Positions 27,628 to 30,139 of a DNA stretch of 35,042 nt are shown piece after piece. This DNA is from an uncultured Nitrososphaerota archaeon (GTDB lineage Archaea > Thermoproteota > EX4484-205 > JAAOZO01). The notes below the pieces were generated by a model that was given only the letters and a program-made list of their open reading frames with translations, did no database searches and was not told the origin of the DNA. Positions within the stretch are counted from its first letter, which is position 1. Each line of letters opens with the position of its first letter. A program made the translations under genes and the position numbers. The DNA lies in the NCBI GenBank assembly GCA_964639105.1, contig CAZXBW010000002.1, forward strand, positions 1 to 35,042. Reading direction: 5' to 3'.

Positions 27628-28368
27628 TCAACTCACTATCGTTACGATACTCTCTGCTTCCGTCGGTCTCTCCTTCGTAGCCCCTTCCTTCGCCACGATC
27701 CAGAACCTCCTCTTGAGGGGTTCCTTCTCGACCACAGCATATCCATACGATAGCATGAAGCTGATGAGCACAGCACGTCGAAGCCTTTCGTTCAGACTGC
27801 CCTCGCCCAACAGTTCCTCATACAGCAACCTTCCACCTCTATTCTGAAGCTCTTCATGCAAACCCAGCATTTCGTCCGAGATGAGTTCATCGTAGGTGAC
27901 CCCAAGGGATTCCAAGCTCTCGCCCAACAGGGGTTCCATCTTCTCGGCACCGATGGTGTAGTCCTTTAGGTTGCTCCAGTATTCGTAGGATCTTCTCATC
28001 ATCTCAAGACTCAACACGTCTCGTCCTGTGCTCGGTCTCCAAGATTGCAGGAAGGCCTCGGCTAGTCTGTCTGTTGAGGATCCCATGACCGCCAGCCTGA
28101 TCAAGAACGGATCGACATAGAGCACCGACGACTTGTCCCTTAGGAATTTGCTCTGGCTGTACACCAGTATCGCAAAGTCGTACAGGGCTTCCATGTCCAG
28201 TTCTATGTGCTTGAACTGCAGGCTTTTCTTGATGAGTTGTCTGAGCCTGGACAAGCGTGGCTCTAGCTGGACCGCGAGCGGATCCGACCCGCTCCTCATG
28301 GCCGAGGACAACTCTACTATGAGGTCCTTGAGTTCCTTCTCAACTTGTCTTTCAGACGTTCTCGACAA
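27628..28368 (-). CDS. Kleisin-like protein (ScpA/Nse4 class), second gene of the mini-SMC operon
   Basis: The 246-aa protein has the C-terminal segment LLYEELLGEGSLNERLRRAVLISFMLSYGYAVVEKEPLKRRFWIV. This aligns by eye with the ScpA C-terminal winged helix encoded in this same window (VLELFEGLDYIEMVRTFIILLFVLSSMDYEIEKKGEQFWIV). The TTG start overlaps the SMC-like gene by 17 nt. The stop lies 1 nt from the kite ATG. Confidence 0.55.
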   Translation of the reverse strand: MSRTSERQVEKELKDLIVELSSAMRSGSDPLAVQLEPRLSRLRQLIKKSLQFKHIELDMEALYDFAILVYSQSKFLRDKSSVLYVDPFLIRLAVMGSSTDRLAEAFLQSWRPSTGRDVLSLEMMRRSYEYWSNLKDYTIGAEKMEPLLGESLESLGVTYDELISDEMLGLHEELQNRGGRLLYEELLGEGSLNERLRRAVLISFMLSYGYAVVEKEPLKRRFWIVAKEGATKERPTEAESIVTIVS

Positions 28369-30139
28369 TGTTGATCACCGAAGTTCCACTCACCTTCTGC
28401 ACAACTATGCCTACTGCTCTGGTGATTGACTTGGGCACTTGGCCAGGAGTCACCACCAAGTATGATGCTTCGGGGTTGTTGTTCGCTTCTTGTTCGACGA
28501 GCTTGAAGAACGTCTCCCTGTTCCGCGGATCCATGTGTATGTCGAATTCATCCAGCGCCCTCAGAGGGGACTGTATGAGTGACTGAAGAGAAAGCATGAA
28601 TGCTATTATGGAGGAACTCCTCTCACCGCCGCTCTGTGTGAAAGAGTTGAGTTCAACGAGTCTGCTTCCACCAAAGCTGACGAGGATCTGGACACCTGCT
28701 TGGTCCATGTCCTCCTGACCGGTAAAGCGGATTTCTCCATCCGCCCCGATGTTTCTCATCTTTTCCTTAAAGGAATCGCTGAGTTGGTCCACGAGCTTGG
28801 CAACCTCTCTTCTCCAAAGCGTCAGAGTCTCGTCAATCTCGCTGAGCACAGACTCCTTGTTCTTCTTGACGGCCAAGGACTTCTGCTCTATGTCGTCGTA
28901 TGTCTTCCTGTAACTCTCATAGATTTGTTCTGCGTTCTCAACAACTGAACCGAGTGTGGCTAGACCAATCTGCGCATCCTCGAGTTCCTTGGTGATCTCC
29001 TCGCGGTTCCTCGTTCGGCTCGGCTTGGGACCCAACTCAGACGCTTTCTTGAGAGCATCCTCTGATGCGTTCTGCGCCGACTTCATGCTTGCCTCCACTT
29101 TGCTCTTGAGTCTTGTCAACAAGGAGAGGTTTCTCTTCAAAATGGCCTCCCTGACTCTTGCTTCCGCATAGCTCTCAACAGTGCGAGTCAGCTCCTGCTT
29201 CGAACGAGACTCCTCGTTTTCTCCAGCATGCCTCGCGGAAGTGGTCAGCTCTTCGACCTCGTTCTGGAACTGCGTCAGCAACCCTGACACGCGCCTTGAC
29301 GCATCTTCGATCCTTGAGCCATACTTGGCCAGCCTTTCACTGATCTGGACGTTCTTCTCGGCCAGCCGATCAACTTCCTGGGACAAACTTGCGTGTTCAG
29401 ACCAAGCTTGCTCGATTTGCAGCTCAGTCATCCTGAGTTTCAGCGAATCCCTCTTCTTGAGCTTCTCAACCTCTCCGTGCCAAGTGTCAAGAGTAGCCTG
29501 TGCTTCAGACAGAAGCGAGGAGAGCTGCTTCTCCTCACTGGCAACCTCTGCTAGCCTGTCTCTCGCCTCTCTTATTCTGTCCCTGAAGTGAGTGAGGCCG
29601 ACGGCTTTCTCTATGGTCTGCAACATGGTCTGAGCAGTCAGAGCCGCTATTTCTTCGACCATGTACTGATGCATTATAATGAACATGTTGTCTGGATCTA
29701 TGCCGAATCTGTTCAGTACATCGTAGATCTCCAACTTCGTGGCTTGTCTAAAGTTCATCTGATGCCAGTATTCGCCGTCTTCCCTGAGATAGCGGGTGAT
29801 GACAAGTTCATCGGTTCTGACCTCAGGTATCGGCCTGGATCCGTTCTGGGCCTTATTGTCGAACACCAGCGTTATCCTCGCGATGTCTTCTCCCCACCTT
29901 ATGAGGTCACTCAGCTTCCTACCTCGCTCCGTGTGAGCTTGGCCCAGCCCAACCGAGAGGCCTAGAAGTATGGAGGACTTTCCAGCTCCGTTCGGGCCCA
30001 AAACGAGATTGAGGCCAGCTGAGATGGGAATTCTAGCATACTTGTATGTCATCAGATTCTCAAGTATGAGTTCCCTTAGCAGTAGTTTGCTCTGCCGTGT
30101 CTGCCCAACTGGCCTCTCGGCTATCACAGTCGGTCTCAA
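28352..30139 (-). CDS. Hinge-less short SMC-like ABC ATPase with Smc5/Smc6-like head motifs
   Basis: The N-terminal head reads [70 protein letters not shown]. About 300 aa of coiled coil follow, with no globular hinge and no cysteine anywhere in the protein. The C-terminal head reads [47 protein letters not shown]...[11 protein letters not shown]. The start is TTG 30139 or, given the TATA position, GTG 30127. Confidence 0.7.
   Translation of the reverse strand: [595 protein letters not shown]

Follow-up and report, generated by a model that had tools for sequence, protein, structure and literature searches.

How does an SMC (structural maintenance of chromosomes) ATPase of only 595 amino acids (aa), without a hinge, fit into the known SMC classes, and how might it act? 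The question is raised by the window analysed here, a 35,042-nucleotide (nt) stretch of contig CAZXBW010000002.1 in assembly GCA_964639105.1 of an uncultured Nitrososphaerota archaeon, which encodes both this short SMC and a full-length canonical one. An earlier note, made from the letters of the stretch, had proposed a compact prokaryotic relative of the Smc5/6 branch. Head scores, a profile search, a tree and the partner genes support that affinity; the branch itself is not new, since the class has been published. We consider it very probable that the short SMC is the ATPase of an archaeal SMC5/6-related SMC–kleisin–kite complex, a paralogue of the canonical SMC–ScpA–ScpB complex also encoded in the window.

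Reading frame and ATPase motifs

The gene and the main elements of its product are as follows.

28352..30139, minus strand: short SMC ATPase, probably SMC5/6-related (open reading frame (ORF) call; Pfam SMC_N, 1.9e-26)
29975..29998, minus strand: Walker A, GPNGAGKS, residues 48–55 (translation; columns invariant in a 23-sequence family alignment)
28751..29593, minus strand: antiparallel coiled-coil arm, residues 183–463 (heptad z = 8.5; AlphaFold2 secondary structure)
28619..28636, minus strand: ABC signature, QSGGER, residues 502–507 (translation; the first Gln is common to Smc5)
28529..28555, minus strand: Walker B and D-loop, LDEFDIHMD, residues 529–537 (translation)
28442..28450, minus strand: TPG, residues 564–566 (Thr564 and Pro565 invariant in the family)

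The length of 595 aa counts from a TTG start; homologues in databases start at a GTG four codons on, which gives 591 aa. The N-terminal head (residues 20–182) leads into an ascending arm helix (183–301), a hairpin apex (302–306), a descending arm (307–463) that contains a joint-like break (369–402), and the C-terminal head (464–595). Pfam SMC_N matches with 93 bits against a cut-off of 40, and both head strings quoted in the earlier note are present verbatim in the translation. Walker A, the Q-loop (candidate residue Gln158), the signature, Walker B and the D-loop are all present and invariant across the family, and the catalytic Glu531 of Walker B is intact. The protein is an authentic head of SMC type, complete with neck and joint, in which the ATP-binding and hydrolysis motifs that were checked are intact.

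Several of these motifs carry residues typical of Smc5 and Smc6. In the Walker B and D-loop region, DEFD is common to Smc6 and MDP to Smc5. Arg527, preceding Walker B, is common to both proteins, whereas canonical SMC has Tyr at this position; Pro565 is likewise common to both (‘ITPK’, ‘ITPQ’), the canonical counterparts there being TH, TL or SL. The eukaryotic motifs cited in the earlier note agree with retrieved real sequences, QSGGER.VST..YLMALQ....SPFRVVDEINQGMDP.NER for Smc5 and LDEFDV[FY]MD..NR for Smc6, and the canonical SMC of the window (3440..6943, minus strand) does read SSGGEKSVTAL...FYFFDEIDAHLDARN. In all, 14 family-conserved residues occur in Smc5 and/or Smc6 but seldom in canonical SMC; 7 are of the opposite kind. 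Four of the 14 are common to both Smc5 and Smc6 (N151, R527, M536 and P565), six to Smc5 (Y32, L173, A179, W442, Q502 and P538) and four to Smc6 (M30, R438, F532 and R541).

Smc5/6 affinity of the heads

Four independent lines support placing the short SMC with Smc5/6 and not with canonical SMC, Rad50 or RecN: heads-only searches of Protein Data Bank (PDB) sequences, an exhaustive search with the family profile through 1.84 billion cluster representatives, a neighbour-joining (NJ) tree of the heads, and partner genes of Smc5/6 type. Searched at full length against PDB sequences, the short SMC found yeast Smc5 first (1e-28). The ten best matches of the family profile were all Smc5 or Smc6 (6e-58 to 4e-52), followed by archaeal Smc (9e-48) and SMC2 (6e-38). 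Because arm length could bias such scores, the heads were also searched alone. The heads of the short SMC scored 111 bits with yeast Smc5, 91 with human SMC5, 82 with Pyrococcus Smc and 76–79 with SMC6, and lower with SMC2 (55), SMC3 (47), SMC1 (34) and Rad50 (25). The corresponding family head profile gave 172 bits for Smc5, 127 for Smc6, 127 for Pyrococcus Smc and 114 for SMC2, then about 100 for SMC3, 91 for SMC1, 84 for SMC4 and 51 for Rad50. As a control, the heads of the window's canonical SMC produced the opposite order, with Pyrococcus Smc at 284 bits, SMC2 at 180, SMC3 at 150, SMC1 and SMC4 at about 137, Smc5 at 55 and Smc6 at 29.

In the profile search of 1.84 billion representatives, the short family came out on top with more than 500 bits, followed by a few longer relatives. 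Next, at about 250 bits, came proteins of 1,000–1,130 aa named Smc5 at source, from the insect Anabrus simplex and the amoebozoan Arcella intermedia, which equal or outrank canonical archaeal SMCs.

A head phylogeny by a simple method, neighbour joining, where the earlier note had proposed maximum likelihood, placed the short family on the Smc5/6 side of the split from canonical SMC, with modest rooted support. The tree was built from MAFFT alignments (337 columns, 66 taxa) by neighbour joining on Scoredist distances with bootstrapping; canonical archaeal SMC stood for the SMC1–4 side. The split between the short family with its hook- and hinge-bearing relatives, Smc5 and Smc6 on one side and the canonical SMCs on the other received 88% unrooted support, and 100% once three ambiguous Asgard-like taxa were removed. 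Smc5 and Smc6 were monophyletic at 84% and nested among the archaeal sequences. Published maximum-likelihood and Bayesian trees point in the same direction (PMC9389158; PMC8665677), with 100%/0.99 support in PMC9389158 for a sub-clade of Smc5/6 and SMC5/6-related archaeal proteins.

The three Asgard-like taxa are P0371 (1,127 aa), P0350 (Thorarchaeota, MBS3795489.1) and P0382, full-length hinge-bearing SMCs that share ‘TPAK’ with the Smc5/6 side. P0371 matches Pfam SMC_hinge and also has ‘DEFDVFLDPEN’, another feature in common with that side. All three sit next to the canonical SMCs in the NJ tree, in an unstable placement that depresses bootstrap support.

Kleisin and kite partners

Downstream of the short SMC gene lie two further genes on the same strand, and a second SMC operon occupies the other end of the window.

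27628..28368, minus strand: Nse4-like kleisin, 246 aa, overlapping the SMC gene by 17 nt as called
27078..27626, minus strand: predicted Nse1/Nse3 (MAGE)-like kite, 182 aa, tandem winged helix, starting 1 nt past the kleisin stop
2218..6943, minus strand: canonical SMC operon (SMC 3440..6943, ScpA-sized gene 2787..3443, ScpB 2218..2823)

The short SMC is co-transcribed with the kleisin and kite, and the three genes are probably translationally coupled. A scan of GTDB genomes found at least 13 archaeal loci, 10 of them with downstream sequence, including loci from Methanomethylicia, Thermofilales and Bathyarchaeia. Among the matches listed, the order SMC, kleisin, kite is kept in all 10, each with a kite homologue at E values of 1e-38 to 1e-50. 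The neighbouring ORFs, as far as scanned, include one SMC gene and one kite gene; no Nse2 SUMO ligase, RING or SP-RING domain, or protein like Nse5/6 turned up among them.

Sequence profiles indicate that the kleisin is Nse4-related. Pfam Nse4_C is matched by 9 of 11 members of its family (best 3.4e-7), and the family profile aligns with the winged helix at the C-terminal end of two Nse4 proteins, human NSE4/EID3 (9.7e-4) and yeast Nse4 (0.014); hhalign also finds weak similarity to the C terminus of the window's ScpA-like protein. The kite is, on its predicted fold, Nse1/Nse3 (MAGE)-like and not ScpB- or MukE-like. Its AlphaFold2 model (mean predicted local distance difference test (pLDDT) score 79.8) was built on an alignment of database proteins only, which is less diverse. 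The top six Foldseek matches of this model are to Nse1/MAGE-G1, Nse1–Nse3–Nse4 and MAGE-A4 (3e-5 to 5e-4), with ScpB (1.6e-3) and MukE (5e-2) lower. One of 11 kite family members matches the Pfam MAGE domain (3.6e-4). The kite has more than 4,000 homologues, every one unnamed; its family profile found no match among PDB sequences, and it shows no sequence similarity to the window's ScpB.

The two archaeal SMC complexes are encoded about 21 kb apart. The canonical operon comprises a 1,167-aa SMC with an SMC_hinge match, a 201-aa ScpB (PF04079, 4.5e-33) and an ScpA-sized gene whose 218-aa product has no Pfam match.

Could the short SMC instead be a lineage-specific shortened paralogue of canonical archaeal SMC, its Smc5/6-like motifs convergent or retained from an ancestor and without a special tie to eukaryotic Smc5/6? 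We regard this as improbable, although it is the sole rival with any support. Pyrococcus Smc equals Smc6 on the head profile; the signal is chiefly Smc5-like. The best NCBIfam match is SMC_prok_A, far under its cut-off. Foldseek, run on the AlphaFold2 model of the whole short SMC, placed an archaeal structure first, the engineered Pyrococcus Smc head/coiled coil/joint construct 5xei (template modelling (TM) scores 0.64 and 0.72); it confirmed the SMC fold and did not separate Smc5/6 from other SMC classes. Against such an origin, Smc5 exceeds archaeal Smc by 29–45 bits in the heads-only comparisons, with the reciprocal control strongly reversed. Eukaryotic Smc5 is the nearest match outside the family among the 1.84 billion representatives, unrooted support for the split is 88–100%, and the published maximum-likelihood support for the SMC5/6 sub-clade (100%/0.99) points the same way. 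The kleisin and kite, moreover, are Nse4-like and Nse1/3-like, not ScpA/ScpB-like. The head evidence and the Smc5/6-type partners outweigh a canonical offshoot.

Some further results weigh against an SMC5/6-related complex. Rooting the head tree on Escherichia coli SbcC and RecN lowers the support to 60% (Scoredist) or 34% (Kimura), the long SbcC/RecN branch attaching unstably in rooted NJ trees. The window's kleisin by itself falls below the Pfam Nse4_C threshold. Scanned singly with Pfam and NCBIfam, the kleisin, the kite and a 233-aa protein encoded upstream of the SMC gene gave nothing significant, and neither partner has a significant PDB sequence match of its own, so that their assignment comes from family profiles and predicted fold. 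The homologue accessions KUO42521, RLE82386 and NHV06955 are not in the supplements of the study of this protein class by van Hooff et al. (bioRxiv 10.1101/2024.01.07.573240).

An arm without a hinge

The AlphaFold2 model of the short SMC, built on the 23-sequence family alignment, has a mean pLDDT of 85.6. Its arm consists of one ascending helix (residues 183–301), a five-residue turn of low confidence (302–306) and three descending helices (307–369, 379–396 and 403–463). With about 120 residues in each direction, of about 280 in total, it would reach roughly 17–18 nm. The arm is heptad-rich, as had been noted, its z score being taken over shuffled sequence. The globular hinge is absent too, again in line with the earlier note: Pfam SMC_hinge is unmatched, whereas the canonical SMC of the same window does match, and the model contains no globular insert. 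The short break that had been pointed out near ARHAGENEE is real and corresponds to the hairpin apex. It is not the sole one, as the descending arm has a second, which is conserved, at residues 369–378 and 397–402.

On the predicted structure, this second break is read as the SMC joint, because AlphaFold2 interrupts the descending helix there, 5xei is the best structural match, and the break, at LGPKP, can be aligned with its counterpart in the canonical SMC of the window. Since an engineered construct of head, coiled coil and joint is its best PDB match, the natural short SMC looks, in the model, like an SMC cut a little beyond the joint, with a hairpin sealing the end.

Sequence conservation falls steeply towards the tip. 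The apex, ARHAG (nt 29222–29236), is the least conserved segment. Compared with an 89%-identical homologue, the heads are 95–97% identical and the tip 45%; with a 77%-identical homologue, the heads are 90–98% identical and the tip 16%. Such a pattern of strongly conserved heads and joint with a fast-evolving tip argues against a conserved dimerisation element at the tip.

The absence of cysteine had been taken to exclude a Rad50-type hook. This stands for the window protein, with no cysteine in its 595 translated residues; it does not extend to the family, in which close relatives carry a central CxxC. The point bears on whether the short SMC could be a member of the archaea-specific SMC-related proteins (ASRPs, including ClsN and Sph1/2) or of a Rad50 or arcadin-4 lineage. 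ASRPs are archaeal, of similar length (the NCBIfam profile has 593 positions) and have coiled coils without an SMC hinge. The ASRP model nevertheless reaches 41 bits where its cut-off is 300, Walker A alone being aligned. ASRPs have a zinc hook, and a kleisin and kite are unreported for them. Rad50 models of NCBIfam reach at most 65 bits against cut-offs of 700–1000, and Rad50 heads 25–51 bits in the PDB searches. With scores this far under the cut-offs and no hook, such a membership is highly implausible and was rejected.

The short form as a family trait

A word-indexed search found more than 340 homologues of the short SMC, with 36–100% identity and from many independent assemblies. Their hosts are Thermoproteota, Bathyarchaeia, Brockarchaeota, Nitrososphaerota, Methanomethylicia, Culexmicrobium and Hadarchaeum. 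Among the matches listed, all full-length homologues have 570–694 aa, the sole exception in length being one fragment of 359 aa. In the wider collection of family-like proteins, 128 of 152 have 548–694 aa. This is a large, uniformly short family (548–694 aa) of Thermoproteota (TACK archaea) and some Hadarchaeota.

Segment lengths were compared in 23 diverse members. The N-terminal head (163–164 aa), the proximal ascending arm (68 aa), the descending arm with the joint (116–118 aa) and the C-terminal head (about 130 aa) hardly vary, and the mid-arm (reference residues 251–345) is the only variable part, at 92–202 aa. The same members have 0–3 cysteines each, none of them conserved.

Mid-arm lengths in the family alignment fall into three classes, of about 92–105, 137–153 and 200–202 residues, with no continuum. 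Arm length, this suggests, changes in paired steps of roughly 45–50 residues.

Hinge-bearing relatives of 835–982 aa exist, which would suit a remnant of a full-length SMC, decayed or mis-assembled, whose hinge had been deleted internally. The uniform length of most family-like proteins, with identical head and proximal-arm lengths, the intact frame with all catalytic residues kept, and the recurrence of homologues across many independent assemblies leave such an origin next to no likelihood. A truncation artefact was rejected, the short form being conserved family-wide.

Relatives with a hinge or a candidate hook

Three relatives have a hinge or a hinge-like middle. P0325 (835 aa; locus L023, 4001–6508, in the 3.58-Mb record CP147778.1) matches SMC_hinge at 4.6e-11. 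In P0300 (982 aa; L021, 4001–6949) and P0314 (928 aa), the globular, hinge-like middle was identified just by inspection, Pfam SMC_hinge being unmatched in both at E ≤ 0.01. All three carry the head motif DE[FY]D.H[LM]DP and group with the Smc5/6 side in the head tree, and homologues of the kleisin and kite genes come after the genes of P0300 and P0325. These forms suggest that the short family arose through loss of the hinge and the distal arm.

A second set, P0264, P0275 and P0279 (1,016–1,047 aa, Bathyarchaeota), nests within the short family in the head tree and has a conserved ‘[IT].C[DE][KR]CGS.L....W’ exactly at mid-length. The hook call is based on this central motif, Pfam Rad50_zn_hook being unmatched in these variants at E ≤ 0.01. 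By sequence, the motif is a candidate zinc hook of the Rad50 kind, here combined with a head of SMC type. At two hook loci examined (L020, 2105–5248, and L022, 4001–7087), no kleisin or kite was found within 4 kb. The long-armed hook group also includes P0311 and P0312, with RLI38935.1 and MCW4041730.1 as examples and ‘KPQI[RK]CDKCGS.L’ as central motif.

Archaeal heads of Smc5/6 type may thus occur with three arm tips: a hinge (835–982 aa, ancestral-looking, kleisin and kite kept), a bare fast-evolving hairpin (548–694 aa, the dominant TACK family, kleisin and kite kept) and a CxxC hook (about 1,016–1,047 aa, a Bathyarchaeia subgroup). We put forward tentatively, leaning somewhat towards doubt, that these tips are interchangeable and that the hairpin form works without tip dimerisation as a minimal SMC–kleisin–kite machine.

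Neighbouring genes

Two further genes flank the operon of the short SMC.

30222..30923, plus strand: 233-aa ORF, divergent from the short SMC gene and 82 bp upstream of it
24192..27071, plus strand: Lhr-type DEAD-box helicase, 959 aa, convergent, its end 7 nt from the kite gene

The 233-aa ORF is strongly conserved (E values of 1e-50 to 1e-67). A homologue divergently adjoins the same operon in Methanomethylicia (L001) and Bathyarchaeota (L013), and lies within 2–3 kb of it at two other loci (L006 and L009). The protein has no Pfam, NCBIfam, PADLOC or PDB match, and a five-sequence profile found no Pfam or PDB match either; it could be an extra subunit or a regulator.

An Lhr gene stands convergently beside the kite gene in 3 of the 10 loci with downstream sequence among the matches listed (L002, L005 and L012), and a further one occurs some 3.6 kb downstream of the gene for the hinge-bearing P0300. 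The adjacency is a weak hint of a link to DNA repair.

The genes around the operon are housekeeping genes, and no defence-family match goes beyond generic ATPase ones. The surroundings bear on whether the short SMC could be the sensor ATPase of an SMC-like defence system, as LmuB is in Lamassu or JetC in Wadjet. Both have about 600–650 aa and arms of roughly 20 nm, so that size and short arms resemble LmuB (PMC10586767), and PADLOC gave weak matches to mad3 (75 bits), LmuB (42 bits) and AriA. The PADLOC matches (JetC 27 bits, LmuB 42), however, are generic ATPase ones that fall far short of the matches to Smc5, and PADLOC found nothing for the kleisin, the kite or the upstream gene. No nuclease, protease or Toprim effector gene was found nearby, the Walker B Glu is intact where typical LmuB differs, and the short SMC has no hook. 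The family is also very widespread, in a conserved three-gene operon with housekeeping neighbours. A defence role is thus very unlikely; it was rejected on the generic matches, the missing effector, the intact Walker B Glu and the neighbours.

Proposed mechanism

For the SMC5/6-related complex, DNA clamping by Smc5/6–Nse1/3/4 (PMC9191643) provides a model, along with the analogy to Smc–ScpAB. The short SMC is presumably a homodimer, two copies of which would sandwich two ATP between their heads. A single kleisin would span from one copy's neck to the other copy's cap, and a kite dimer would rest on the kleisin. Heads, kleisin and kite would form a clamp that holds double-stranded DNA atop the engaged heads, like eukaryotic Smc5/6–Nse1/3/4, and ATP hydrolysis would release or reset the clamp.

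Because the short arm ends in a fast-evolving hairpin with neither hinge nor hook, the dimer would be held by heads, kleisin and kite instead of by the arm tips. Clamping is favoured over loop extrusion because neither of the two elements closes the arms; that the complex acts as a head-proximal DNA clamp or a short-range bridging or repair factor, and not as a long-range loop extruder, is a proposition that we regard as roughly evenly balanced. The mode of dimerisation, the clamping and the stoichiometry are carried over by analogy, and the tips may associate, for example through a non-conserved four-helix bundle; both points count against the mechanism as drawn here.

Relation to known SMC complexes

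SMC5/6-related archaeal SMCs and their SMC–kleisin–kite operons were described between 2021 and 2025 (Yoshinaga & Inagaki 2021, PMC8665677; Yoshinaga et al. 2022, PMC9389158; van Hooff et al. 2024/25, bioRxiv 10.1101/2024.01.07.573240), the last also describing two SMC complexes per genome for TACK and Asgard archaea. The described class has the same range (mostly TACK, with few Euryarchaeota such as Hadarchaeota) and a canonical SMC–ScpA–ScpB operon alongside. It also has the same gene order of SMC, kleisin and kite, together with Smc5/6-affine heads, an Nse4-like kleisin and an Nse1/3-like kite; no feature of the short SMC contradicts membership. The window thus adds a member and not a class, archaeal Smc5/6 relatives being already established. 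No discussion of the length, the absent hinge or the hook variants was found in the accessible parts of the three sources, which is not proof of novelty.

Eukaryotic Smc5 and Smc6 (yeast 7ylm, 7qcd and 7tve; human 9lwi) have in common with the short SMC the head signatures QSGGER, P[FIL]R-x-[LV]DE, DEFD, MDP-x-N and ITP, the intact ATPase motifs, an Nse4-type kleisin and MAGE/Nse1-type kites. They differ in being about 1,050–1,150 aa long, with a hinge and long arms, in forming an Smc5–Smc6 heterodimer, and in having Nse1 plus Nse3 where the short operon has one kite gene. Canonical Smc–ScpAB (that of the window, and Pyrococcus Smc in 5xei and 4i99) shares the head, neck and joint fold, the operon order, the presence of a kleisin and a kite and, presumably, the homodimeric state. 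Head identity between the two is only about 27%, and the diagnostic residues and the kleisin and kite archetypes differ; the short SMC has no hinge and an arm about one third as long. Rad50/SbcC, ASRP (ClsN) and LmuB are similar in size and arm length, and the long variants P0264, P0275 and P0279 have a hook-like central CxxC. Unlike Rad50/SbcC, ASRP and LmuB, the short SMC has a head that is SMC-type and not Rad50-type in sequence and fold, with a joint and no hook, and it is accompanied by a kleisin and a kite in place of Mre11, a nuclease or other effectors.

The value of the system lies in its architecture. A 595-aa SMC, a 246-aa kleisin and a 182-aa kite come to about 1,020 residues, roughly a third of the yeast Smc5/6 core, in a complex that is strongly conserved yet has neither the hinge nor most of the arm. 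It offers a tractable system for asking which SMC activities need just heads, neck, joint, kleisin and kite, with ATP-driven clamping, topological loading and translocation as candidates. Its sister forms with a hinge or a hook are natural comparators, and the family could aid reconstruction of the role of the pre-eukaryotic Smc5/6 ancestor. If the hairpin forms do work without tip dimerisation, at least one conserved SMC function would not require a closed SMC lumen, and head-proximal DNA clamping would be suggested as the core role of pre-eukaryotic Smc5/6.

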